Source: Spizellomyces punctatus DAOM BR117
Lineage: Eukaryota
Reading direction: 5' to 3' (one strand)
Assembly: GCA_000182565.2 (NCBI GenBank)
Contig: KQ257457.1
Length of the DNA: 64,000 bases
In this document: piece by piece, positions 2,698 to 47,539 of the stretch
Position numbering within the stretch: position 1 is the stretch's first letter
How the letters are laid out: each line of letters begins with the position of its first letter
Notes under the pieces: generated by a model
Seen by the model: only the letters and a program-made list of their open reading frames with translations
Database searches by the model: none
What the model was told of the DNA's origin: nothing
Translations under genes and position numbers: made by a program

Positions 2698-5580
2698 TCA
2701 CACTGAAAGAGTTGACACGCTCTCCCGCTTCTGCTCCTCGGCAAGCATACTGTCCAACAAGTTGATTGCTGAATTGATCGTTGCGCGATTGGATGATGTT
2801 CGCGGCAGCGAATGGCTTCGGATTTCATCCGAGTGTCGGTGATAGTTGGATGGTAAGGAAGGAACTGGAGCGGAGATGGATTGGTGTGGGAAGGACACAT
2901 TTGGTGTCGACGCTCTTCGCATTACGGCTCTTGGATGGGGTAATATCCCCGACTGGATGGTGTGTCGCCAGGGATTGAATTGATCTTCCAACGACGTTTT
3001 GGGCGGAACCGGGGGAAGTGGAGCAGTTGGTGGCGGGGATGCTGGTGACATTGGGTCCGGACTCAGCTTGCTAGTCAAAAGTAGACGCGCAGATGAGGTC
3101 GAAACGCCTGAATCCTCCCTCTTCAACGTAATGGGACTCTTTTCAGATTCTGCACTCTTTGGCCTCCCCAATGATGCTTTTTTGGGACTTAGCTCCTTGG
3201 AAAACGCATCGACAACCCCAAACCATTGCATGTCATCGCACCAAAAGTACCAAACCTTCGCCCCACTCTTGACGGAAAATCCAAAACCTGCTCGTGAGCC
3301 CCTTCCTCGTCCTTCCTCCGTAATTTTGACTTCTGTGCCAACTCCGACGTACAAAACATCACTCGCGTCCTTATCCTTGATCGGGTCTGGGACACGCGGC
3401 TCATGATACAGGTAGAGAAACCCAGGAGTCAGCACGCAATATCGGCGTTTCCATGAGCGAATAAAGTTTTGTGGGGGATGCTTTGTCGTATGGAGAAATC
3501 CAGAGAAGATGATTTGATGTGAAGCTTGCTCAACAGGATTGATCGCGGACAACACTTTCGGAGTGACCGTAGCTGGAGCGGATGAGTTAAGCGAAAACCG
3601 CCTGATGGCTTTGCTATTCTTGATGGCTTCATCGACAGATTTGGATATCCTGTTCAATGTCCCCGTAGAACTGAAGCGCTTGGTCCTCTCCAGTGTACCT
3701 CCCAAAATAATGGACGTCCTCGCAGCGCTTTTCGAGCTGCCATTCTCGTCATCCATGCCCAAAACTTTCATGGCCTTCTGATTTACTAACAATTTGTTGT
3801 CCGCTTCATCATCAGCGAGTATTCCAAGCGTCTTAAGAGCCTTTGTGTTTGACCGTGGTGGGGTTGGGCTCGTCTCTAAGGTGATGGAAGACAAGGGAGC
3901 TTTGGGCGATGACTTGGGGTGCGGTTGTGGTCGGTCCAGCGACTCGCCGCTGATTGAGGCGATTTTGATATTACCTGCATCATCGTCCATGCCCAGTATT
4001 TTCATTGCCTTTTGATTGACCACTATTCCTGAACCAGCTTCCCTTTCAGATATAATCCCGAGCGTCTTAAGAGCCTTTGTATTTGATCTCGGCGGGGTTG
4101 GTATTGTCTCTGATGCGACGGGAGAAACCGGGGATTTGGGTGATGGCTTCGGGGGCGGCTGTGGTGCGTCAAGTGATTCTTCACTCACTGTAACCGTTTC
4201 AATACCAGACGATTCCGTCCCCTCCTGATTGGCTGCCATAGCAGATTTTGCAAGCATATTAGGCATGTTTGCATCGTCACTAGTTGCAGTGGAATTCGCC
4301 TCTGGAGCGACAGGAGACCAAGGCGTGTCCGGCAGCGGCTTGCTGACCCTTTTCGGACGCTCCAAAGAACCACCAATTATGAAAGACTCCGTTTTTGACC
4401 TTCTGAGGGTTCTAATGTTCATCCTTGTTGGAGACTTGTCGAGAGCCGAGTCATCGCTCATCCCTAAAATGCGCATCGCCTTTTCATTGATTGCAATTCC
4501 ATGATCAGCATCAGTAATGATACCAAGGGTCTTTAGAGCTTTCGAATTTGAACGGGGCGGAGTGGGAAACGAGGTAATCAATGGCGACGAAATGGGAGAC
4601 ACTGCCTCGGTACTGCTCTGTGAAGATGGAAGTTGGAGAGCTGCCATTTCTGACGGGCTCGATGGCGGAGTTGGCAGTGGCGCAAGTGGGGGAGCAGTTT
4701 GATGAGCTTGATGATCTACGGGTTGAGACAGCGGTGATCGCACAGATCCCGCACTTTGCTCTTCTGAAGCGGTAAGCTCTGTGGACTTGTCTTCCACAAT
4801 AGGAGGTAATGGTGCGGAGGGCGGGGGATGCGTAGGTTCATTTTTCTCATCTTCGAAAAAGATGCGATGTATAGGTACCGGGGATGAGGGTGGAGTTTCA
4901 TCTTCCGCTATGGTGGGTAGTGTGCGTCCGTGTCTGCCGACAATTCCATCCCCTTGATGATACTGCATCGTTCTGCCGACTGCCTCCGCATCAGCTGCCG
5001 CGCTGCCACTCTTTTGAGTCGTATCCTCAGGTTCCACGTCCTCCACCAATGTGCTGGTACGACTATTGCAAGTCGTAAAGGAAGACCGATTCGACTCGGA
5101 ATCTTCCTCGACAACGGGTCCAGCTGTTGCCAACTTTGCCTTGATAGCTTTGAGTTCTTCCAACGTTGCACATAGAGTTTGCAAATGTGCCAAAGATGTG
5201 GTGCGAAGGTAGACAGGGGCGAAAAGTGATACTTCGGGAGTCAGCGGGGACATGGCAGAGTCACCACCGACGTGGGTTTCAATTACATTCTCTTCGTTGT
5301 CGTCCTCAGGAATGGTTGGGAGACCAAGATACGCGTCCAGCAACGACGAGCATGACTGTACACGATGGAGTTCTGACTCTGGAGTAGTACTGTCGCCTTT
5401 GGTTTCGGTGATTACAAGGTCCGGAGCGGTTGACATTACTTGGTCAACAAGTGTTTCTAAAGTATCAACTTCCTCTGAGAGAGGCTCCATTTTGGTGGTG
5501 CCAGCATCACCTTTTGTCGTCGATCGATCCTCCTCTCCTAGCTGCTGTCTGTCTTGCAGCTGCTCTCTTTGCTCTGACAT
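2698..5580 (-). CDS. Large low-complexity Pro/Ser-rich protein with C-terminal PH domain
   Basis: Intronless ~960-aa ORF (first ATG at 5580); PH-like FSGFLH...SWKRRYCVLTPGFLYLY...FGFSV...WYFWCDDMQW. Confidence 0.75.
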   Translation of the reverse strand: MSEQREQLQDRQQLGEEDRSTTKGDAGTTKMEPLSEEVDTLETLVDQVMSTAPDLVITETKGDSTTPESELHRVQSCSSLLDAYLGLPTIPEDDNEENVIETHVGGDSAMSPLTPEVSLFAPVYLRTTSLAHLQTLCATLEELKAIKAKLATAGPVVEEDSESNRSSFTTCNSRTSTLVEDVEPEDTTQKSGSAAADAEAVGRTMQYHQGDGIVGRHGRTLPTIAEDETPPSSPVPIHRIFFEDEKNEPTHPPPSAPLPPIVEDKSTELTASEEQSAGSVRSPLSQPVDHQAHQTAPPLAPLPTPPSSPSEMAALQLPSSQSSTEAVSPISSPLITSFPTPPRSNSKALKTLGIITDADHGIAINEKAMRILGMSDDSALDKSPTRMNIRTLRRSKTESFIIGGSLERPKRVSKPLPDTPWSPVAPEANSTATSDDANMPNMLAKSAMAANQEGTESSGIETVTVSEESLDAPQPPPKPSPKSPVSPVASETIPTPPRSNTKALKTLGIISEREAGSGIVVNQKAMKILGMDDDAGNIKIASISGESLDRPQPHPKSSPKAPLSSITLETSPTPPRSNTKALKTLGILADDEADNKLLVNQKAMKVLGMDDENGSSKSAARTSIILGGTLERTKRFSSTGTLNRISKSVDEAIKNSKAIRRFSLNSSAPATVTPKVLSAINPVEQASHQIIFSGFLHTTKHPPQNFIRSWKRRYCVLTPGFLYLYHEPRVPDPIKDKDASDVLYVGVGTEVKITEEGRGRGSRAGFGFSVKSGAKVWYFWCDDMQWFGVVDAFSKELSPKKASLGRPKSAESEKSPITLKREDSGVSTSSARLLLTSKLSPDPMSPASPPPTAPLPPVPPKTSLEDQFNPWRHTIQSGILPHPRAVMRRASTPNVSFPHQSISAPVPSLPSNYHRHSDEIRSHSLPRTSSNRATINSAINLLDSMLAEEQKRESVSTLSV
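3744..4566 (-). repeat. Three intragenic ~40-aa repeats (PTPPRSNxKALKTLGI...KAMxxLGMxDD)
   Basis: Visible in translation at approximately 4450-4566, 3978-4101 and 3744-3867. Confidence 0.85.
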
Positions 5581-6239
5581 GCGGATCAGCTCAATGTTTG
5601 TTGCATTTCCTAAAGTTTTCTTCAACGAAGTCCAATGCTACAAGTGTGAAATTTGGGTCCCAAGTGTGACCAATCTTTCGTGTACAGCTGTGAATGTTGC
5701 ACTGTGCCGCTCTTTGTCCGAATGAGTAAACGCACTTTAAATAATTGGTCCAAAAGTGACAAGAAAATCATGTGGGATATATATGTTTATGCTGTGCTTT
5801 AAAGGAAGTTGCAATTTCCACCATTCAAGATGTGAAGAGGTGTGGCAAATGTCTCGCTGGTGCTGTCGCTGATTAGGGGCTTCCATGCACTAGCCAAAGA
5901 TTGAACACTGCTGGACAAAGTGTGAACAAGGTCTATTTGTGGGATGTCAGGTCCACCAGCAGCATGACAATGACAGAAGTCCTCTTCACAAACGGTTCCT
6001 CTCTTACCAAGTTAAATTACCTCTTCCATGGTACAGGCAGAACAGATGTAACTGAACTGAGATTGTCCAGTATGAGGACCCTGCTATCATCGGAAAGTGA
6101 AAAATAAAGGGAATGAAGGTCACCATGTGCGCCGCTACATGTAAGTTTAGTACATAGAGTACATAGCGTGCTCGCGGGGCTCTCCTCTGTTCCTGTGAAG
6201 CCAAGGCAAGCAATTCTCTTGCATCAAATGTAATACTAC

Positions 6240-8041: not shown

Positions 8042-8151
8042 CATCGCGAATCAGTTCTATCCAAAACAAAACTTTGTAAGTTTTCTTCACCAAAAGCCCA
8101 ATGCATTAGTGTGAAATTTGGTTGAGTGTGACCAATCTTACGTGTACAGCT
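8042..8151 (-). repeat. Diverged copy of the 5' leader/start region of the PH-domain gene (5578-5689)
   Basis: aagttttcttca...ccaatgc...agtgtgaaatttgg...agtgtgaccaatctt.cgtgtacagct is shared in direct orientation; ATG at an equivalent position. Confidence 0.7.
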
Positions 8152-30507: not shown

Positions 30508-31003
30508 TGGAATGCCCCATGTTTTGTAGGTGAGGAGGGCAGCAAGGGTGGGGAGCGGCTGATGGAGAGCGTGTTAGGCAAAGAGTGAGGCAAAAAGAAG
30601 GAGCGACTGAGACAACCTTAGCGCTTGTTAGTGACGGCCGGTAGTTGAAGCGTTTTAAAGGAGGAAGATTGTGAGACTGTCCAGTAACTTCCCGCTCGGT
30701 CGAGGTAGAAAAATGCATTATATTGGCGAGTTATATGTACTATTTTAAAGGAAAACCAAAAATGAACGAAAATAGCTGGTTCAAGAGATCATGTCAGTGT
30801 CATGTCCGAATGGAAAAGGGTCTTTTTGCATCTTCAAGAAAACGACATGCTAAGCGTTTCGTCGAGGTGGCTATGCAATTCATATGTATTACATCATCCA
30901 TTTGCCAAAATCTTTAGTGTGGAGGTGATTGAAAATGGCACTAGAACTCATTATTATCCGGATTAATCCGGTTAGTCATATCGCACCCCCTCTATCGCCC
31001 AAA

Positions 31004-31085
31004 GCGGTGAGGCATGCAGCGGTGTGGCATGCTAAATGTTTTTTTTTTTAAACTGCGGTGAGGCGCATGCGGAAGGTCTATAAAA
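31004..31085 (+). promoter_or_regulatory. Triplicated GCGGTG(A/T)GG(CG)CATGC-like motif followed by TATAAAA
   Basis: Copies at 31004-31017, 31019-31032 and 31055-31070; TATAAAA at 31079-31085; pyrimidine-rich tract downstream. Confidence 0.5.
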
Positions 31086-32994
31086 GGGGGGCCTTTTGCT
31101 GTCTCTTCCCTCTTGTTCGTTATCCCTCGACTCGCAAGCATCTGCCCAACAAGTCTCAGTCCATCATGAGAATACTGCTCTGGTGCCGAGGACCTCGCCC
31201 TCCCGACAAAAACAACATAACCCCTTGCAAACGCTGCTACTACTATACTGCAACGATCGCAGGTATGCATTATCTTTGTATTTTCCTATGCGTATTCCGA
31301 GTCTAATTCTGGTTTAATTAGTATCTGAACATCCTCCGACTAAGAATTTAGGAATCAAGGGCTTAGTAGGATTTCTCTCGTGTGGTGGGCTTAGTTACCC
31401 GGTTAGAACAACCGTGACGTTATCGCATGTGTAATTGGGCCTAGTGGTAGTTAGCTTTTCACGTACCCCAGTTCAACCCAGGCTGGAACCTGTAGCGAGT
31501 TAGGATAGGGGTGGGACTCGTTTGCAGGATAGGTTATGAAGGGTTGGACAGGCTGGCTAATTGTAAATTAGAACCGGCTGTAGTGGATTGGAGGGAGAAT
31601 TTGTCCCTAGTGACATTTTCTACCACCTGCACACTATCATGGCCCCCTGAATCACTGCAATCCTTTCAAAAGCATGTTTGCAATAAAAAATAGAAGTAGT
31701 CTCAATAGCGCTTTGGAATTGAAGGGTTTTTGGAGTGTCGACCGCCCTTTCCATGTCCCGCTATACGATGCCTTGAGAGCGAAGAGGGAAGGTAAGGACG
31801 AATATTATCATCTGCTATTTCTCAAAACTGAGACGGTATGTTTAATTTCTTGAAGAACGTGCATATGCAAAGGCATGCAGACATGGCAAAGTGTGTGATT
31901 GATTACGTGAACATAATGTAGTCTTTGTCAGAACATGCCAATCTTCATTGCTTTCACCATGCATTCCCCATATATCTGCTTCATTACGAAAGACCTTGCA
32001 CGCACCCATCGCACAACCGTCGTAAATCGAGCCAGGGCAGCGAGAACGGCATGAAAGTGCCAAAGACCAGGTTAGTGTACTCTAGGTCATTCGCAAGTTG
32101 TTGCGAAAGGAGGTGATGGCGGCCGCCGTAGGTTTGCGTGGAGGTTCTTTTGCAGCCTTCATATTCTCTCCCGTCTTTCCCATAGAACCCCATCGAAAGG
32201 ACCATTCATATGCCAGTCATATGGCATACGGTATGAGAGTAGGAGTACAGACAGTGAGCCAGTATTTGAGATGTTTTGCGTCCTCTGAAGGCATGTCACA
32301 GGGAGTTGTTTGGTCTTCTGTAGTTTTGTGTTCAATCGTCCACTGCAAATATGCAGAGGGTAACAAACAGCAAATGCAATATCCATTCATCCTTCAAGCC
32401 TAAATGTCCCATTTGCACTTGATGGAATCTTTCAATGCTTGTTTTACCAGGGCAATGGACGCGCTGTCGCAAAGTTTCATGGCCGCCAGTCGTTGAATAC
32501 AACATGCTTCTCTGACCACAACCCCTCGCAAGATGACGGAAACTCACACAAGCTTCTAGCAAACACCAACAGGCTTGCACAACTTGCAACAACGTGCATC
32601 TTCATTGTTCAACGCGGGTTGCACTTGTGGTGAAGGTACACACAATTGGGAATTCCCTAGTGCCACAGCTGCTGTCCAACCAGACTCTACCATTTATCCG
32701 ACGACAGCTTCGACAGTTCTTCCTCTGATACATGCCTGTGTGAGTAACTCGCATTCCGCTTGCTGTCCTTCTTCCATCGGGCTGCAACGAATGACCTTTG
32801 CGGCGTTTGTGCATCCGTCAAGGTCCCCCTTCTGACGCGTCTGGTGCTTTAGGATAGACGAACAGTTGTAGTAAGTTGGGAATATGCTGTAGATAGAGAT
32901 AGATGTTTTAAGGCTTTTTTTTTACCAATGTGAGACTCGGACTTTTAACGCATTTGCTGCCCTCAATCAGATAGATAGATTTGCATTTCCAAAT

Positions 32995-35900: not shown

Positions 35901-36806
35901 TATGAATAATTCCGACAAGGTTGAGTGACGTTCTGACATTAGATGTAAGTTTGATTATCTCACCTTTGAAAAATATTTTTTCTTTAGAACCCCACCATTC
36001 TCGTCAAGATATTTGGGTTTTACACACTCAAACACAAGAATCTACAGACGGGCACTGTAAAAAAGTTGGATGTGTTGGTTATGGAGCACCTGTTTGCAAA
36101 CGTCAACATTTCGCGCGTAAGCATTGGCTATTTTTTCCTGCAAGTGCATAAAGGTTGTCACTCATCCACCCGTTCTGGCGGAAACAGAAATTTGATCTTA
36201 AAGGCGTTCCGGATCGGCACATCGTCAGTAAAAAGGACGGTGAAAACGATGTGATGTGGGATGGTGACTGGGTCGATGGTGAGAACCCGGCCTGAACCTT
36301 TCATAGTCATTGAACATTTCGAATGTAATCATTCCATGTTAGGGCGTTACAAGCAACTTCTCCGACTCCATGCCCACTCCAAAAAGATAATCGCCGAATC
36401 TGTCTGGAATGACACCCAATTCCTTAGCGACGCCAACGTAATGGACTACTCGCTCCTCGTGGGCGTCAATGACGATAAAAAAGAACTCGTCGTGGGCATT
36501 GTTGACTTCATTGGTCCCTACACATGGTATAAGATCTTGGAAACGAGAGCCAAGACGACGCTCAATGCAGCGTTGAAGGGTGGCAAGGATGTGACAGTGC
36601 TTCCTCCGGACCAGTATAGAGACCGGTTTAGGAAGGCGATGGAGCAGAACTTTTTGATGGTTCCAGGTGAGCTCTTGACTGTGATAGAAGCGGGCTTCTC
36701 ATAAAAATGCCCCGGACTGAATGAGGTGCTTTATCTAGACAAATGGATTAAGATACCTGGACTAGAACAAGGTATCTCGAGTAAAAAGCTTCCATCCGTA
36801 TTGTGA
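32995..36806 (+). CDS. FAB1/PIKfyve-like phosphatidylinositol-3-phosphate 5-kinase lacking a FYVE domain
   Basis: Cys-rich region (HQSVTF...CRPP...YTHNHGRI...CRECES...YSFAKYLEL), VREDEPTSIIAFTL, ASGGKS, FDLKG, MDYSLLVG, GIVDFI, PPDQYRDRF. Confidence 0.85.
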
Positions 36807-40021: not shown

Positions 40022-41635
40022 TCAGATAGTGATCCCGTCGTTCCCCCCAGGATCCTCCAGCAACCGCACCTTCTTTGGTGGAGGATTTGCGGCACTTCCA
40101 TATATAGCAATCTCTTCACCCCAACCTGCTTGGCAATCCCACTCTGCAGTGATGTGTGCAGTGCCCCAGCCCTCTCCGTCGCTATCCCGAGAAGCCTTCC
40201 ATTTAGTGTCCTTCCAGGCGCTATCATCATCCCAGTCATCGTACGCAGGACTCCCGTAGCCCCAGTCTGCGTCCTCGGTTCCATCCTCCTCTGATTCATG
40301 TTCCTTCGGTATCTCAAAGAGGATCACCACTTTTCTTTCTTCATCATTCCAAATAAAACTCTCCTTGGCCGCCGACGACGTAAAGACCTCCTCAAGACGA
40401 CCCCGCGTCTTACATAATTGTCGTATTCGCAGTATGCTCCAATACCGTTCGAAAGGAAGACACCATGTCCCCACGGCAGGCCAAGAAAGCTTCGCAGCAA
40501 GTTGATCTCGTTTTGCATCTTCGATCATTGAATACCACTCGTTCCATATCAGTGGAAATGTTTTCTCCTTCAGTTCCTGGGTGATAGCCTCGCTACTAAA
40601 TCCGCTTTCGGTGAAGTAAGGGAATTCAATTTTTGCATAATGCTTGTATGGACTTTCCGAAAGGGCGGGACAGTCATCGAGACTACTGAGCGGCGAGTCA
40701 TAGTCGCAACGTTGACGAATGAAAATTGCCACTTGCGAACAGTGACCGACGGAGAGGTCGCCAGGTTTGGATGATAGGATACCAACTCCATCAAAGGAAA
40801 CGGTATAACCAAATTTCGTTGCGGCACTATTTGCCCTACCGCCATCTGTTAACACCTCATCAGATCTGCCATTGAGAGCGCAACGAACCAGCGTTGAAAT
40901 TCATCTCGTGTCCACTCAAACCGATGATCATAGTGACGGAAGCCTGCTTCCGGTGTACCCCATTTCAGATCCGGAAAGTTAACGTTGAAGTCGCCGTTTG
41001 GCGTAGTTACGACCATGATCCGCGGCCTGTAGCCCCCGAGCGTAACCGCGGGAAAGGCTGCCAATACAGGTGGGTCCAAGTGCTCGATTCTGTGAGAAAG
41101 TAAGATCAGAGTACATTGTTAAACTCAATTTCCTTAAGACAACTCACACTTCTACACTCGTAATCGCATCGAACCCGGTGAGACTCTTATCCAATTGATC
41201 AACCGAGCCTGAGCAGATGCAATGGATCTTAATAGGACATATTCAAAAACTATCGCAACTCCTCGAACGTAGTCGCACCCTCGTATAAATTGAACTCTAC
41301 GGGAAGCTCTCTAAGGTACTGCCTGTCATAGTCGGTAGGCGCACAATTAACAGAAGCGTAACGGAGGGATTCCCCGTCAATGTCAACCCCAGCCAGTTTA
41401 CTGAATGTAGGGTCATTGAGAAGGATTTCGAGAAGCGCCCCTTCTCCACACCCAAGATCTAGGACCTGGGTCAATGACAGTCAGCTGCCATTGAGGTGGA
41501 CAACTAGTAAATGAAAGCACGTACCGACTGCACTCCATTATTCTTCAATATATGTGAAACCAGTGCCCTCCTCTGAATCCATAGGGGTGGAGAGAATAGT
41601 TGAGCGCCGTCACATCCATCTCTGGAGGAGGCCAT
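40022..41635 (-). CDS. HEN1: HEN1 small-RNA 2'-O-methyltransferase (multi-exon)
   Basis: Exon 1 MASSRDGCDGAQLFSPPLWIQRR (FxPP motif); VLDLGCGEG; EV|IEHL; VTTPN; FRHYDHRFEWTRDEFQRW. Confidence 0.9.
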
Positions 41636-41736
41636 TTGAGAGCCGAAAGCTTGGACTGGAAAAATGTAGTACACCAGGTGGCTGGTAAATCAATTAACTT
41701 GTCATCACCGACAGTGCAGATTTTGCAGCAGCGATA

Positions 41737-41826
41737 TCTAATATGACTCTTTAGTGCGGAGCCGATGGGTATTGGCACTAGCACCCGCACCAGGGATTGA
41801 ACCGGCGACAACCGGTTCGGAAAAGG
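41737..41826 (-). ncRNA. Putative Fanzor omega-RNA: ~75-nt scaffold (41826-41752) plus ~15-nt flank-derived guide AAGAGTCATATTAGA
   Basis: Starts ~14 nt after the Fanzor stop. TTTTCCGAACCGGTTGTCGCCGGTTCAATCCCTGGTGCGGGTGCTAGTGCCAATACCCATCGGCTCCGCACTA contains stems GAACCGG/CCGGTTC and TGGTGCGG/CCGCACTA. It resembles the SpuFz1 omega-RNA as I recall it. Confidence 0.8.
41741..41753 (+). repeat. 13-bp direct repeat copy 1 (ATATGACTCTTTA), right junction of the Fanzor element
   Basis: Identical to 43714-43726. Confidence 0.9.
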
Positions 41827-43713
41827 TAATCTAACTAATCTACGCTACGGCTGGAACACCCCTGCTGAACACTTTTGGTCTACCGTGTCCATCCAACATT
41901 GATTGCACGATTGTCAGCATATTACAGGTTGCCAGCATATCTCGGTTCCAGTAGCGCATCGTCCAGGCTTGCTGCAAACAGTTAGGGTTGGTACAACCCA
42001 GCAATCCGTGGACTTTTTCCATCTTGCCTTCGCGACGGCGCCAAGGTCTTGAATGAGGTCGTTCTTTGAATTCTTTCTCGACAAACTCAGAGGATGAACA
42101 GCGAGGGCAAACAGATGAGGTCTTGTGTTCATCAAGAAGAAAACAATCAATGCGGTTGCGCTTAAAGAGGGTGCGCCAGCCTTTTGTCTTGGATGAGGTC
42201 TGAAATCTCGCAGTTCTACCGGCATCGCTCCAATCTCCCATCATAATGGTAAAGTTCCCAAACTTGTTGCGCAAGTTGGATATGAGGTTCGATTCACTCT
42301 TCTGACGGTTTATAAATGCATGCCACTTCCACCGTGTGTGGGCAGGGTGGGAGTAGAATTCCTTGCGACGATCCGAATCTGCGCGACGAACGAGAAGGTA
42401 GCGAGTAAAGTCCATGAGGTTCATCGTCTTGTGGCTTGGGATACGTGATTCTATGAGGTCAATGCCGCCGGTTTTCATCCGCTGCCGTTCTTTTGCAAAT
42501 CGACGGCTTCCAGTCTCCTTGCAGCGTTGATTGGCGGTGTAACGGAAGATGGTGCCCTTGTTGTCTTGGCAGTAGAGAATGTCGCGCTTGTTTGGATCGA
42601 TAACGACAATGTTCTCTTGACAAGCAGATAAGTTGTTTTCCACATACAGCGCCTTCACCTCAGCTGCTAGAGCCTTTGCTGACTTTTTCCCTCTGCCGCT
42701 GCGCTTTCCATACTTGTCAGCTTCAGGATGTTTCAAGTAAACTGACACCGAGGTTCCGTCCGTCGTGATCGAGCCTTCAAAACACATTCCACGACGAGAT
42801 CTAAAAGCCTTGTTCTGCAGATTACAGACGCGCAACCATAAATCGACCTTTTCGACAGTTTCCGCTTCTCGTCGCGTGATGCAAAGAAGGTGAGAGTAGA
42901 GGATGATGGTGTCGATTCGCACGTGACTTTGAATGAGCGAGCGACGAAGAGGTATGGCGCTAAACCGTCGAAATCCGTGATGCTCATAGAGTCGGGAGAG
43001 TTTGCAGTATGCAGGAAAGAAGGCGAGAGGGTCTACAGCAACCGAATATGCGAGTGGCTGGTCGTCAGAAAGGGGAATGCTAAGGGACCAAATCTCTTCT
43101 AGAAGTTCACTCTCTTCAGCAGTCAAGTCATCGAGCGACTCAGGCACGATATCAAAAAGGAAAATTGACTTCAAGTAGCGAAGACGAGCAAAGAAAGCGT
43201 TTCGCGCATCGCTTTTCAGTGGCAGTCGCTGCTTCTGTCTCTTCACATCAAGCCGCAGATTAATGTACCGGAGCAGCATCATCATGAAGTGTTCCTGGAC
43301 ATTGACCTTCAGATTCGTCATCATACTCGCTGTCAGATAATTGACTGATTGCTGCTCTTTTTGTACATTTGGATGAACGAAGCCGACGATGTTGCAGTAC
43401 CGTTGGATGTATGGCAACAAGGATTCGCGTAACGCCTTCTTCGCACCGGTTTTTGGTTGCCATGATTCACCTTTGTTGAGAAGATAGAGGATGGCTTCAA
43501 TTGTCTCTTGATTTACTGTGGGAAAGGTTGGTGCAGATAGGATGTAGAATTTGAGAGCGTGGGAAGCGTGGTCAGCAATTTGATGGATGATGGCAATGTA
43601 ATCTAGAAGACGCTGCCGGTAGGTCTCATTAGGCAAGAAAGCCTTTCCAAAGGACGTTTTGTTACAGGTATGTAAGGTGGGTTTGTCGAGTTTTTCGAGT
43701 TTTAAGGAAAAGC
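41752..43713 (-). mobile_element. Fanzor1 element (Spu-1-like), apparently left-end truncated, no transposase
   Basis: Intronless Fanzor ORF plus structured right end ending in TA; bounded by a direct repeat; interrupts a compact HEN1/AASDH divergent pair. Confidence 0.85.
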
Positions 43714-43723
43714 ATATGACTCT
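41840..43723 (-). CDS. Fz1: Fanzor1 RNA-guided DNA endonuclease (TnpB/Cas12 family); frame open for 627 codons but no in-frame ATG at the 5' end
   Basis: SITTDGTSVSV; RuvC-I VVIDPNKRD; MGDWS; RuvC-II LLDEHKTSSVCPRC; CTNPNC; RuvC-III WNRDMLATCNM. Upstream of 43636 the frame reads ...KLEKLDKPTLHTCNKTSFGKAFLPNETY. It closely resembles Spizellomyces SpuFz1 as I recall it. Confidence 0.93.
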   Translation of the reverse strand, partial: RVICFSLKLEKLDKPTLHTCNKTSFGKAFLPNETYRQRLLDYIAIIHQIADHASHALKFYILSAPTFPTVNQETIEAILYLLNKGESWQPKTGAKKALRESLLPYIQRYCNIVGFVHPNVQKEQQSVNYLTASMMTNLKVNVQEHFMMMLLRYINLRLDVKRQKQRLPLKSDARNAFFARLRYLKSIFLFDIVPESLDDLTAEESELLEEIWSLSIPLSDDQPLAYSVAVDPLAFFPAYCKLSRLYEHHGFRRFSAIPLRRSLIQSHVRIDTIILYSHLLCITRREAETVEKVDLWLRVCNLQNKAFRSRRGMCFEGSITTDGTSVSVYLKHPEADKYGKRSGRGKKSAKALAAEVKALYVENNLSACQENIVVIDPNKRDILYCQDNKGTIFRYTANQRCKETGSRRFAKERQRMKTGGIDLIESRIPSHKTMNLMDFTRYLLVRRADSDRRKEFYSHPAHTRWKWHAFINRQKSESNLISNLRNKFGNFTIMMGDWSDAGRTARFQTSSKTKGWRTLFKRNRIDCFLLDEHKTSSVCPRCSSSEFVEKEFKERPHSRPWRRREGKMEKVHGLLGCTNPNCLQQAWTMRYWNRDMLATCNMLTIVQSMLDGHGRPKVFSRGVPAVA

Positions 43724-43728
43724 TTATG
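43714..43728 (+). repeat. 13-bp direct repeat copy 2 (43714-43726) overlapping a minus-strand CATA (43728-43725)
   Basis: Minus strand reads CATA-AAGAGTCATAT-gcttttcc. Confidence 0.9.
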
Positions 43729-46700
43729 CAAAAATATTAACAAATGCGGGAATATGTCCGAATAATGTAGCGGTTATTGCGGAAGAAGAGACTACTGGCG
43801 ATGCACATCAGCGGCTTGTCAAGCTTACCTACCGGGATGTTGTCTCACAAGTTGAACAATTATCGTTAGAATTCAAGCGGTTTGGGGTGAGTGGACCAGA
43901 GACTGACGAGGGGCGACATTAAAATAACAGAACATCCAGATTCAACGCTTCAGCTATGTCGCAACGATAATGAGCAGCTCCTACTCACTTGTCATCACGC
44001 TATTAAGGTAAGCCTGGGCGGTCCTCTTCGTCAACTTGGTGGCAAAAATCCCTTATTCGTGCAGTCTTTTCCAGCTGGGTGCTACGTATTTCCCTTTATC
44101 TGCACACACTCGCTCGCTAATTCATAGCGCGGCTACGATACAACGGATGCCCAAGTTACGATATGTACTATGTAAACGTTCCACGGCGGAAGTAAGTCTT
44201 GATTGATCCTCATCGATTCGGCAAGTGTTTGATGTTGGCGTAGAGGGTCCCCAAGGAAATCGAGCGAGTACGCATTGAAAACGTCTTCTCACTTCCTGGA
44301 TACTGCCTTTTGGTGCGAGATGAAGTGATCAAAGGTACAGGAGTTCTCGAGTGTATTACTTGGGATCTAAAGTTTAATGAGCCTATTGGGCCAGACCATG
44401 AGGAAGCCTTTGAGTCAGTAAATCTCGCCTACATCATCCAAACTTCCGGAACTACCAGGAATGGAAGAGGCATGCCAGTTCGGGTGCCACATAAGTGTAT
44501 TGCCGGAAATATAACCGCCATAGGGTGCGTGCGATAGATCCGCGATTATCTGCCGAACGTATAGGACTAAATTCCTCATCAGCAAGCGTCTAAACGGAAA
44601 CTCTACTCCTATTGTGACCTTGCAAGTTTCCGCCCCGACGTTTGACCCATCTTTGGTAGAAATGCTACTTCCCTTAACCACGAAAGGCACCATTGTCATT
44701 CCTCTCCACGACACACTCTTGAATCCGCCAATGCTGTTCGATATGATTCGAAGAACTGCAGTGACCCATCTGTTCATGACTCCGTCGCTATTCATGCAAT
44801 TTGATTCGGCAGACCAATCAAAATTGCTGGCGGCTGAGACGACTGTCCGCGACATCATTCTTGGGGGAGAGCCATTCCCAATTAGTTTAGTGAACGAGCG
44901 AAGATCTTCACTGGTGAATTTGTGGAATATATATGGCACTACGGAGTGCTCCGTCTGGGCGACTTTACAAAAGGTCGATAAAACGCCGGTCAGCATTGGA
45001 GAGGCTTTAGACGATACAGAAATATGTGTGCCAAACATGCAGAGGAACACTGGCGAATTATGGATTGGAGGACCGAAGCGGATATGTTATGTAGGAGACG
45101 AAGTCAAAGGGGAAAGGTAGGACGCCAAAGCTACTTCGTTGATTCCAACATCTTACACGGAGCAGCCTTAGGCCTACTGGTGACCTTGTTCACATTGATT
45201 CTCTTACGAATGTAATGACCTATATGGGGCGAACGAGCAATTCAATTAAACGGCTAGGTTACCGAATAAATCTGGAAGTTATTGCAGGAGCGATTGATGT
45301 TGTTCCGGGGGTAGTTCGCAGCGAGTGAGTACCTGCTTCATCACACATTTTCAGAATATACTTAACCTTTGTAATGAATAGGGCCATCTATGTGGACCGT
45401 ACCCGGAGCTTTTGTCCTACTACTCTTGTAGCATTTGTGGTAGCCCAGTGCAGAGACCGGAACCCAGTGCAATTGAGACATGCTATTGGCCAGCTGCTCG
45501 AAAAAACCCTTCCTTTCTATGCGCGACCGGATTATGTATTTTTTATAGATGACATTCCCATGACCCACCATGGCAAGGTTCGTTGAGTCTCATTCGCTCT
45601 CAGTGTCGAATCAACTTACCAATCAGAAGCATAGACGGATAGGACTGCTCTTTTGAGGATCTGGGAGGACAGAAGGAGGGTAGTTCACGAGTCTGGTCCA
45701 AGTCAATCATTGTCCAGGACCGATGTAGAGCGTCACGTACTCACCACACTAGCAAACCAAGTACCCTCGAGCCCTCAAGGTCGCGATTGGTGGTTTTTGT
45801 CCGAAGGAGGAACTAGTATTGATGCAGCAAAAGTCACTGAGGACCTACTTCGCTGGATAGGTACCTCTTCGTTGAGCACCTGATACAGAAACAGCGTGTC
45901 TAATACTTTCCATCAGCACTATCAGCAGCAAAGAGAAATAAGCCCGATGTGGAGCTGGACATGATTCGTCCAATCCTCCTTACTCGCATTCTCCACAATG
46001 CGGCCAGCGAGGTGGTAGCATATGTTACTCAACTGCTGAATTCTGACGAACCTCTGTCATCCACCGTTCGAAAACGATCTCGCCCTTCTTCTGTAGGGGA
46101 TTCAATCACCTCATGCAGACAGCGTCAGTGTCTGGATGAGAGCGAAGATCGCGCTGGCATTCTCATCGTACGTCGTACAATGGAGGCTACAACACGCTCT
46201 CATGAACATCATGATCGACATCGAGAACTCCAGAAAAAACTCAAGCTTAGAGTTCAGTGGAAGGTCAATCTAGAGAAATGCGTGGATGCCTCCCCAGTTT
46301 TACTGATCAAAGCCGAGGATGAGCGGTTAGTGTGTTTCTGGTCTTCACTTCCTCCGAAATCATCTGATCTATCGCCGCTGTTCCAGGCAGGTTCTCATGA
46401 CTTATATCGGTTCCCATGCCGGTATTTTCAGTGCGATCGACGTGCTCACCGGAACATTGATTTGGCAAGCGCAAATACGAGGCAGGATTGAGAGTAGTGC
46501 GTGCGTCACACGTGATGGAAAGGTGGTTGTTGTCGGTAAGTCTTGCTTGCGAGGCCGTTCCAGCTAGGTGTCTAGTGGTAAATGTTTAGAGATAGGGTCC
46601 TACGATTTCCGAGTGTATGCTTTCAGTACGACGTCAGGAGCCATTATCGGGACTTATGCCACGGACGGTGAAGTCAAGAGTTCGCCTGTAACTGATAAAT

Positions 46701-47539
46701 GGAACCATATTTGGGTTGGGTCTCATGATGGCAACGTGTATTGTCTTCAAGTCAGTCCAGAGTCTGATGGACTAGTTTGTTTGTGGAAATATAGTATGGA
46801 TGCAGGTGTATTTGCGTCCTGTGTAGCCGACGACGCCAGAAGGTGCGAGCAGTTGGCGCTATGTGATCTGGCATACAATACTGATTTCCCGTAGCCGAAT
46901 ATTCGCATGCGCGCTTGGAGGCAAACTTGTATGCATCACAACATCATACTCGTCTGAGCCGACAGTCTCGTGGATCAGTAACAGCCCTACGAACAAACCG
47001 TTCTTCTCATCGCCGTCCATTGATCCTAAATCTGGAAATGTTATAGTCGGCTGTGTTGATGGAAGCATTTATTGTTTCGAAGAAGACGGTGGCAACTTGG
47101 TAAGTTGAATCAGTCAACATATCATGTGCGTTCAGCTTCATACCTAACACATGCCAACGCGCCGTAGGTTTGGAGTCACTCTACCGCTGGACCTGTCTTC
47201 TCGTCTCCATGCGTTAGCTCGTTGCTGGATGTACTTTTCATCGGTTCGCATGGATGTACGGTGACATGTCTAAACCTGACAACGGGTTTACCCCAATGGC
47301 AAGAACCTCTCCGCACTCCAGCGGCTGTATACGCTAGCCCGTTCTTATCATATGACGGAGTTGTAGTAGCCAGCATAGATGGTTGGATAGGAATTGTGAA
47401 TCCCCTAACGGGCAAACTGATTGCTGAGCATATGATTGGTGGAGGCGAGGGTATTTTTTCGAGCCCTGTATGCTACGAAAAGTGGATTGTGGTGGGAGCA
47501 AGAAACAACTTTGTATATGGAATATCGATTGACTCATAG
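43716..47539 (+). CDS. AASDH: AASDH/ACSF4-like beta-alanine-activating enzyme (adenylation + carrier + PQQ-repeat domains)
   Basis: AYIIQTSGTT, TFDPS, GGEP, NIYGTTE, TGDLV, IPMTHHGK, GGTSIDA (Ppant Ser), KCVDASP and repeated FSSP/IGSH PQQ blades. Confidence 0.88.

Follow-up and report, generated by a model that had tools for sequence, protein, structure and literature searches.

How does a mobile element whose insertions are expected to duplicate only a TA come to lie between two copies of a 13-bp repeat, one of which carries the start codon of a conserved host gene? This is the question raised by a stretch of 64,000 nucleotides (nt) of contig KQ257457.1 from Spizellomyces punctatus DAOM BR117 (assembly GCA_000182565.2), termed here the window, in which SPPG_04926, a gene of the AASDH/ACSF4 type, has at its very start a Spu-1 Fanzor1 element that lies on the minus strand and is enclosed by the two copies of the repeat. 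The element family and the host genome together form a published model system; what appears to be new is the truncated, 13-bp-flanked structure found at the AASDH start. Our answer, which we favor tentatively and with slightly less than even confidence, is that the 13-bp duplication is the scar of an aborted Fanzor "cut-and-copy" event, that is, of a restorative homing that was not carried to its end.

The Direct Repeat and the Junctions of the Element

Spu-1 elements are described as being about 2.1 kb long, with terminal inverted repeats (TIRs) of 30-33 nt (33-bp TIRs) and with a TA as their presumed target-site duplication (TSD) (PMC3627910, PMC10432273). A CA is conserved upstream of their left repeat, and the target-adjacent motif (TAM) of the nuclease is CATA (PMC10432273). 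Since a second, ghost element of the window also has TA on both sides, in line with PMC3627910, we take the canonical Spu-1 insertion to involve a TA only. The locus examined here departs from this rule, with a duplication of 13 bp versus the canonical 2 bp, a TA at the right end of the element and a CA|TA at the outer edge of the gene-side copy.

The repeat (ATATGACTCTTTA) was identified both by repeat finding and by direct reading, and its two copies, at 41741-41753 and 43714-43726, are 100% identical and spaced by 1973 bp. The promoter-side copy (41741-41753) contains an orphan ATG (41743-41745) and stops at a TA (41752-41753) that directly precedes the right-end inverted repeat, which opens with GTGCGGAGCC at 41754. 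The gene-side copy (43714-43726), which is the left one in the orientation of the element, has a CA upstream and is made of the TA plus 11 nt of target; it contains the ATG (43716-43718) that starts the AASDH/ACSF4-type open reading frame (ORF). Between this copy and the truncated element lies a junction filler of about 10 nt (43704-43713) that shows no homology to canonical copies: its 12-mer occurs once in the window, and the frame reads CFSL here where canonical copies have KKKQ. On the minus strand, the filler (GCTTTTCCTT) matches the inverse complement of the bases of canonical codons 6-9 at 9 of 10 positions, a likeness that rests on the loose end of one contig at 43699, coming from another copy and lying just upstream of the truncation point. 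The filler may be a snap-back templated patch, or else the match may be due to chance in a low-complexity stretch, and we mention it as a lead only.

The 13-bp flank repeat is genuine, and chance does not account for it. When the gene-side region (43300-44300) was shuffled 20,000 times with preservation of dinucleotides, the promoter-side copy being held fixed, the 13-mer was recovered once. The window holds ten exact pairs of 13-mers with a spacing of 500-4000 bp, the flank repeat being one of them. A chance repeat or an assembly artefact was nonetheless weighed as an explanation of the whole structure. It could draw on a perfect 12-nt direct repeat of no apparent meaning that lies close by (ACTTGTCATCAC, at 41697-41708 in the AASDH upstream region and at 43987-43998 in exon 2), which is itself probably due to chance, as a segment of 3.5 kb should hold about 0.4 pairs of this kind. 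It could also draw on the runs X1-X3, low-depth contigs that are probably DNA, of which the 24 pieces listed out of 468 span neither junction. The anchored shuffles speak against it, as does the fact that not one base separates the flank repeat from the right-end repeat; so does the annotation of both genes on one reference contig of 1.43 Mb. We thus regard this explanation as extremely improbable.

A Fanzor1 Element Without Its Left End

The Fanzor1 coding region occupies 41840-43703 on the minus strand and encodes a paralogue of SpuFz1, in a frame that runs from the junction without interruption until the stop codon at 41840-41842. Compared with the SpuFz1 chain of structure 8GKH, its ORF (41840-43636, minus strand) aligns over all 598 residues (E = 0, 1135 bits), and the equivalents of the catalytic residues D383, N385, E541 and D606 are all present. 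Six S. punctatus paralogues that are full-length or nearly so share 81-87% identity with the protein; among them, SPPG_07727 (638 amino acids, aa) has the very length stated for SpuFz1. Distinctive residues link the N-terminal third of the protein encoded here to SPPG_09210 (P0048), and residues of its middle are shared with SPPG_09012 (P0050); identity to any single paralogue does not exceed 87%. This mosaic similarity suggests gene conversion among Spu-1 copies.

It is at the 5' side that the element is damaged. The canonical start MPPKKKQKLEKLDKPT is found in 14 of 17 S. punctatus Fanzor proteins, and the homology of our copy to the full-length ones begins at about codon 8, at KLEKLDKPT. 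The frame has no 5' ATG; it extends without a stop as far as a TAA in the flank, and the annotated product (P0039) comprises 493 aa only, from an internal methionine. Concerning the left-end inverted repeat, a motif search of the window returned 16 matches, none of which lies near 43.7 kb; the motif is exact only at 41754 and 30917 and is found with 2 mismatches at the left end of the ghost (31622). Likewise, a motif internal to the left end, deduced from reads of other copies, is not found in the window, where a lone match with 3 mismatches at 36782 compares with 0.69 expected. The element is therefore 5'-truncated, having lost its left inverted repeat and its 5' leader as well as some seven codons from the start of the Fanzor gene. 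A blastn comparison of the element and the ghost to the window returned only the right end of the ghost (37 nt, 78%) and no further piece of Spu-1, and three related loci found in metagenome contigs (36-57% identical) were uninformative, as neither inverted repeats nor flanks could be recognised in them.

The Start Codon of the Host Gene

SPPG_04926 (P0001), annotated at 43716-47539 on the plus strand with a first exon at 43716-43886, codes for a protein of 1027 aa. By its domain content, it is an AASDH/ACSF4-type enzyme (of the beta-alanine-activating kind): Pfam recognises Beta-prop_ACSF4 (2.3e-85), AMP-binding (3.4e-35, from residue 16) and AMP-binding_C (1.8e-06). At E <= 0.001, no PP-binding (carrier) family was returned by Pfam, and a conserved FLSEGGTS-like stretch is visible in the alignment.

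The N-terminus of the annotated protein, MTLYAKILTNAG, is the translation that opens at the ATG of 43716, and the repeat contains ATG ACT CTT TA, which is this annotated start. The orthologue of Spizellomyces "palustris" (P0002), which shares 82% identity with SPPG_04926 (848/1039), begins with MSLYAKILTNAG, so that the start is common to both species, and in chytrid orthologues that are more distant the N-terminus is about as long or longer. As the AMP-binding domain begins at residue 16, there is no room for a lost upstream exon. On the other side of the element, the orphan copy reads ATG ACT CTT TAG (MTL*), the TAG being at 41752-41754, and amounts to an ORF of 3 codons. The frame upstream of the orphan ATG, W*IN*LVITDSADFAAAISNMTL*C, has an in-frame stop 15 codons before it and no ATG in between. 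The element sits at codon 4 of SPPG_04926, a codon that a canonical insertion at the TA would split, leaving the ATG on the promoter side.

The first-pass annotation of the stretch, made from its letters alone, had already proposed that the repeat holds the real AASDH start codon, that an orphan copy of this ATG (41743) is left behind while the second copy (43716) runs into the gene, and that a canonical insertion would have parted the ATG from its ORF. The gene annotation, the start shared with the sister species and the position of the AMP-binding domain all bear this out. It had also proposed that the duplication rescues the start, and here only half of the proposal stands: the ORF does regain an ATG of its own, but the promoter side of AASDH remains 1973 bp away and carries the 3-codon orphan upstream ORF. 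A divergent minus-strand neighbor is found at about 41250-41620, whose likely ATG and the orphan ATG of AASDH are only about 125 bp apart; one of its ORFs (41250-41474) bears what looks like a GxGxG-type methyltransferase motif. Because the likely ATG of this neighbor is so close to the orphan one, a bidirectional promoter region, and a very compact one, would have been cut off from the AASDH ORF by the insertion.

From the same facts, the first-pass annotation had derived a selected revertant: a normal insertion followed by the selection of an allele that restores AASDH and that escapes cutting, yet might still be bound by a Fanzor supplied in trans, with repression of the host gene as a possible outcome. 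The conservation of an AASDH ORF that is intact with its own ATG speaks for such an allele, as does the transcription of the 3' end of the gene (see below), and an allele restoring the ORF could indeed be favored over one with the full insertion. However, the element is 5'-truncated and followed by a filler, and the duplication is better explained by a mechanical account that needs no selection. The part of this proposal that concerns the binding of Fanzor depends on the guide and its target, to which we now turn.

The Predicted Guide and Its Partial Target

The published omega-RNA of Spu-1 consists of a 75-nt scaffold spanning the right repeat, followed by 14-15 variable nt (PMC10432273), and in a recent review the 5' TSD is part of the TAM while the 3' TSD lies inside the scaffold (PMC13565253). 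In the element examined here, the scaffold is found at 41752-41829 on the minus strand; it comprises the right-end inverted repeat (41754-41781) with its flanking TA, and forms two stems, the second of which has a loop of 8 nt. The 101 nt running from 41835 to 41735 fold at -32.9 kcal/mol (z -2.90), and none of 200 shuffles was equally stable. The scaffold is further supported by the loose ends of reads at 41752, 41781 and 41829, as well as by its homology to the right end of the ghost. A search of Rfam over 41000-44500 at E <= 1 gave 0 matches. A tRNA-like origin of the scaffold stretch (GGTTCAATCC) was also considered and rejected, as ARAGORN found 0 genes.

Following the published omega-RNA architecture, the predicted 15-nt guide template (AAGAGTCATATTAGA) lies at 41737-41751 on the minus strand and is the first flank sequence past the right-end TA. 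At the other junction, a partial Fanzor target is found at 43714-43728, also on the minus strand: a CATA TAM (43728 to 43725) is followed by 11 guide-identical nt (43724 to 43714), which are the reverse complement of 41741-41751, and then by bases that match the guide at 0 of 4 positions. The first-pass annotation had this right, in that it described the site as a TAM with 11 nt of guide match and mismatches thereafter. When the element and one copy of the repeat are removed, the reconstructed empty site reads CATA and then the full 15-nt guide sequence.

What would such a site mean for the nuclease? SpuFz1 tested in human cells is minimally active when the guide counts 10 nt and reaches a plateau at 13 nt (PMC10432273); in structural terms, the state with an 8-bp heteroduplex is inactive whereas the full heteroduplex counts 15 bp (PMC11423790). 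A match of 11 nt is an intermediate case, and therefore neither an escape from cutting nor a stable binding without cleavage follows from it. The claim that the revertant resists re-cutting is thus not established, 11 nt being within the range of partial activity of SpuFz1 (10-13 nt). The notion of repression does find some support in the overlap of the TAM and its 11-nt match with the ATG, and in the presence of full-length Fanzor paralogues in the genome. It is weakened by the fact that SpuFz1 is an active nuclease and that the copy at the locus retains the catalytic residues.

RNA Reads at the Locus

Run X7, of which about 6% was read, is made of RNA, and its records do not exceed 60 nt; its first mate was taken as sense, since the 3' end of AASDH has signal on the plus strand only and a spliced joint (CT..AC) of the convergent neighbor is seen on the minus strand only. 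The 3' end of AASDH is expressed, with a plus-strand depth of 171.7 at 47222-47468. Further upstream in the gene, this depth does not exceed 1.56, and it falls to 0 at 43764-44010, in the 5' exon. The first-pass annotation had counted on RNA sequencing to find the AASDH start: the data do show that the gene is expressed at its 3' end, but since the depth is 0 at the 5' exon, X7 does not place the start of the transcript. Plus-strand reads do align at 43517-43763, and these carry the bases of other copies at every diagnostic site (for example 13/13 at 43595 and 6/6 at 43647).

On the minus strand, the depth over the scaffold is 168 (bin 41788-42034), while it is about 0-1.3 over the Fanzor body, which is a further point against repression. 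Reads of other copies align along 41752-41829 and diverge outside, 155 of them at 41752. All 12 reads that cross 41749 carry an A and not the C of the locus; as about 1 locus read would be expected if some 150 loci were equally expressed, the absence of the locus guide from these 12 reads is uninformative as to whether the guide is made. RNA-guided repression is left unsupported, and with 11 nt standing between the 10-nt minimum and the 13-nt plateau, the whole of the revertant proposal appears to us very improbable. Plus-strand RNA reads also cover the right-end repeat (41754-41781, 149 deep at 41765) and depart from it at 41781 into a sequence that they have in common; the best reading is that they stem from transcription across the left inverted repeats of other copies. 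Among the joints listed from the four runs, none crosses the element.

A Proposed Aborted Homing Event

We can now come back to the duplication and to the homing reading that we favor. SpuFz1 cuts after nt 16/17 on the non-target strand and after nt 20/21 on the target strand, leaving 5' overhangs (PMC10432273). Starting from this, a full-length element would have been inserted canonically at the TA of CA|TA|AAGAG..., so that the flank past the right-end TA became its guide. A copy of the empty site, with its CATA and its full guide match, would then have arisen, either on a sister chromatid after excision or as a naive allele. Fanzor would have cut this empty copy beyond the TAM, at 16-17 nt on the non-target strand and at 20-21 nt on the target strand. 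Of the two ends thus produced, the TAM-distal one, which alone would have been homologous without interruption to the right flank of the donor, could invade it and copy leftwards, first the flank and the TA, then the right end, and on into the element, whereas the TAM-proximal one would have borne a non-homologous tail of 16-21 nt, making the repair one-sided. Synthesis would have halted about 100-150 bp before the left end, and end-joining, with a filler of about 10 nt, would have linked the nascent end to the TAM-proximal one, itself trimmed to the TA and 11 nt. This trimming may have come about through repeated re-cutting as long as at least 13 bases matched, until the match fell below the length needed for efficient cutting. 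As a by-product, the host ORF would have regained its own ATG, with 1.97 kb of antisense Fanzor now standing between it and its original promoter.

All these steps are inferred, and the features that they predict are those observed: an intact right end with its omega-RNA, no left end, a filler, and a repeat anchored at the TA. In addition, the repeat (2+11 nt) is shorter than 2+16 to 2+21, as the homing model requires, and a CA precedes its TA.

The main rival to this reading is a one-ended, aberrant transposition, in which the right end would have been inserted normally at CA|TA, while the left end was lost and the element was end-joined, with fill-in, to a break 13 bp away, without any cleavage by Fanzor. 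It accounts equally well for the anchoring at a canonical TA with CA upstream, the filler and the loss of the left end are typical of end-joining, and it dispenses with a prior full-length insertion, with excision and with a second allele. It leaves unexplained, however, why the second break falls within the cut distance of 16-21 nt, and why it falls on the side that produces a duplication rather than a deletion. Moreover, we know of no terminal truncations with long TSDs among the Tc1/mariner-like TA elements. Nor does it explain the motif-anchored TSDs of 7-19 bp known from Chlamydomonas (PMC3627910). On balance, one-ended transposition seems to us rather unlikely, but not to be neglected.

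A rearrangement posterior to the insertion would be another route to the same structure, whether by template switching during replication or by a later deletion of the left end that was patched from the right flank. Fillers and short duplications are hallmarks of template-switch repair as well, and nothing in the window argues otherwise. Yet the template would have had to jump by 1.95 kb, to copy precisely the 11 nt next to the right-end TA and to insert them right behind the left TA, which is less parsimonious than a break inside the target, and we consider such a history improbable.

Other origins were considered and rejected. Retroposition by the machinery of a long interspersed nuclear element (LINE) is not compatible with a 3' end that halts exactly at the inverted repeat and the TA, with no poly(A). 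A fill-in of the 4-nt overhang left by Fanzor itself would duplicate 4 bp and not 13. Finally, an ectopic donor with a guide that matched by chance would have its guide-matching bases on the TAM-proximal end, which could not prime the copying of the element.

Several points weigh against aborted homing. The case is made on a single locus, of which neither a full-length nor an empty allele was seen, and the precise excision, or the naive allele in the same nucleus, is an assumption. The same anchoring at CA|TA could result from one-ended aberrant transposition. Of the 17 annotated Fanzor proteins of S. punctatus, no more than 3 have an internal start, so 5' truncation is not visibly common. To our knowledge, Fanzor homing has been shown in no eukaryote. 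Lastly, neither a transposase nor excision is known for Spu-1, as far as the consulted parts of PMC10432273 go.

It is nevertheless possible, although we hold it with less confidence than the scar itself, that the duplication, the lost left end and the filler form together a footprint left in nature, in the native host, by a Fanzor that cut its own empty site, the copy-repair having been aborted. The role of the Fanzor nuclease activity in eukaryotes is described as unknown (PMC10432273), and such a footprint would be the first in-genome evidence of Fanzor-driven homing in a eukaryote. The residual 11-nt match would then mark the length at which re-cutting ceases. The same process would explain the variable length of the "TSDs" of the 5'-truncated Fanzor elements CRe-1/2/3, as well as the excess of remnants that keep a right end only. 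If duplications that are anchored at the TAM and bounded by the cut distance turned out to be general, existing genomes would already record the cutting by Fanzor in vivo, and the homing hypothesis could be tested by a simple genome survey. As for the host, it would keep a conserved gene with an intact ORF, a displaced promoter, and a TAM-plus-seed site over its start codon.

Other Features of the Window

The ghost Spu-1 element mentioned above lies at 30915-31636 on the minus strand, with both inverted repeats, a TA on each side, an omega-RNA and no Fanzor ORF. Over the first 28 positions, 7 differences separate its repeat from the Fanzor-type one, in agreement with the "seven positions" of PMC10432273. 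Its left flank is GA|TA and not CA|TA, so that its empty site would be devoid of a CATA TAM; its right flank begins with AAGA, as does that of the Fanzor element. Elsewhere in the window, a dispersed similarity of about 70 nt (5620-5690 and 8085-8150) holds exact 13- to 15-mers, and a tandem-like duplicate of 187 nt, 73% identical, is found at 3746-3931 and 3980-4165.

Comparison With Known Systems

The closest relative of the locus is Spu-1/SpuFz1 itself, with which it shares the organism and the family, the right-end repeat, the two-stem 75-nt scaffold, the TA at the right end and, at the outer edge of the gene-side copy, the CA before the left TA. It differs from it in lacking the left inverted repeat, the 5' leader and the start codon, and in having a filler of about 10 nt and a 13-bp duplication. 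The genome of S. punctatus DAOM BR117 contains 42 Fanzor and 134 ghost loci (PMC10432273), and the present one, which the main text of Saito et al. 2023 does not describe, presumably belongs to the "partial" loci of that paper (PMC10432273). A structure with 13-bp flanks at the AASDH start does not appear in the parts of the Spu-1 literature that were consulted. Ghost elements, for their part, have kept both ends and no ORF, whereas the element at AASDH has kept its ORF and right end and lost its left end.

The CRe-1/2/3 elements of Chlamydomonas offer a more distant parallel. They are 5'-truncated Fanzor1 elements with TSDs of 7-19 bp right after the insertion motif TTTT, a structure that Bao and Jurka attributed to one-ended rolling-circle transposition (PMC3627910). 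They resemble our locus through their 5' truncation, their intact 3' end and their motif-anchored duplications of variable length, in the range of the Fanzor cut distances (PMC3627910). They nonetheless belong to another superfamily (Helitron2-type), and their nuclease is inactive in vitro and its TAM unknown, according to the sections of PMC10530073 that were consulted.

As for the homing process itself, the parallel is with the restorative homing of the TnpB/OMEGA systems, where the guide is also the right flank, the empty site is also a TAM with a guide match, and the cut likewise leads to copying from the filled allele. This homing has been shown only in bacteria and with complete restoration, as presented in the consulted parts of the review PMC13565253, while the locus would represent an aborted event in a eukaryote. 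The words "truncat", "incomplete" and "SDSA" (synthesis-dependent strand annealing) have no occurrence in the text of that review. No link between such duplications and cleavage by Fanzor or TnpB was found in the open literature that was searched.

The P element and Ac/Ds provide the precedent for an unfinished repair. In these systems, incomplete synthesis-dependent repair from the sister copy gives rise to defective elements, often with filler at the junction. The breaks occur at the ends of the element and both ends prime the synthesis, which leads to internal deletions in which the termini are kept and no extra flank is duplicated. The element at the AASDH start is different in that one terminus is lost and 11 extra bases of flank are duplicated, an outcome that is expected only with a break inside the flank.

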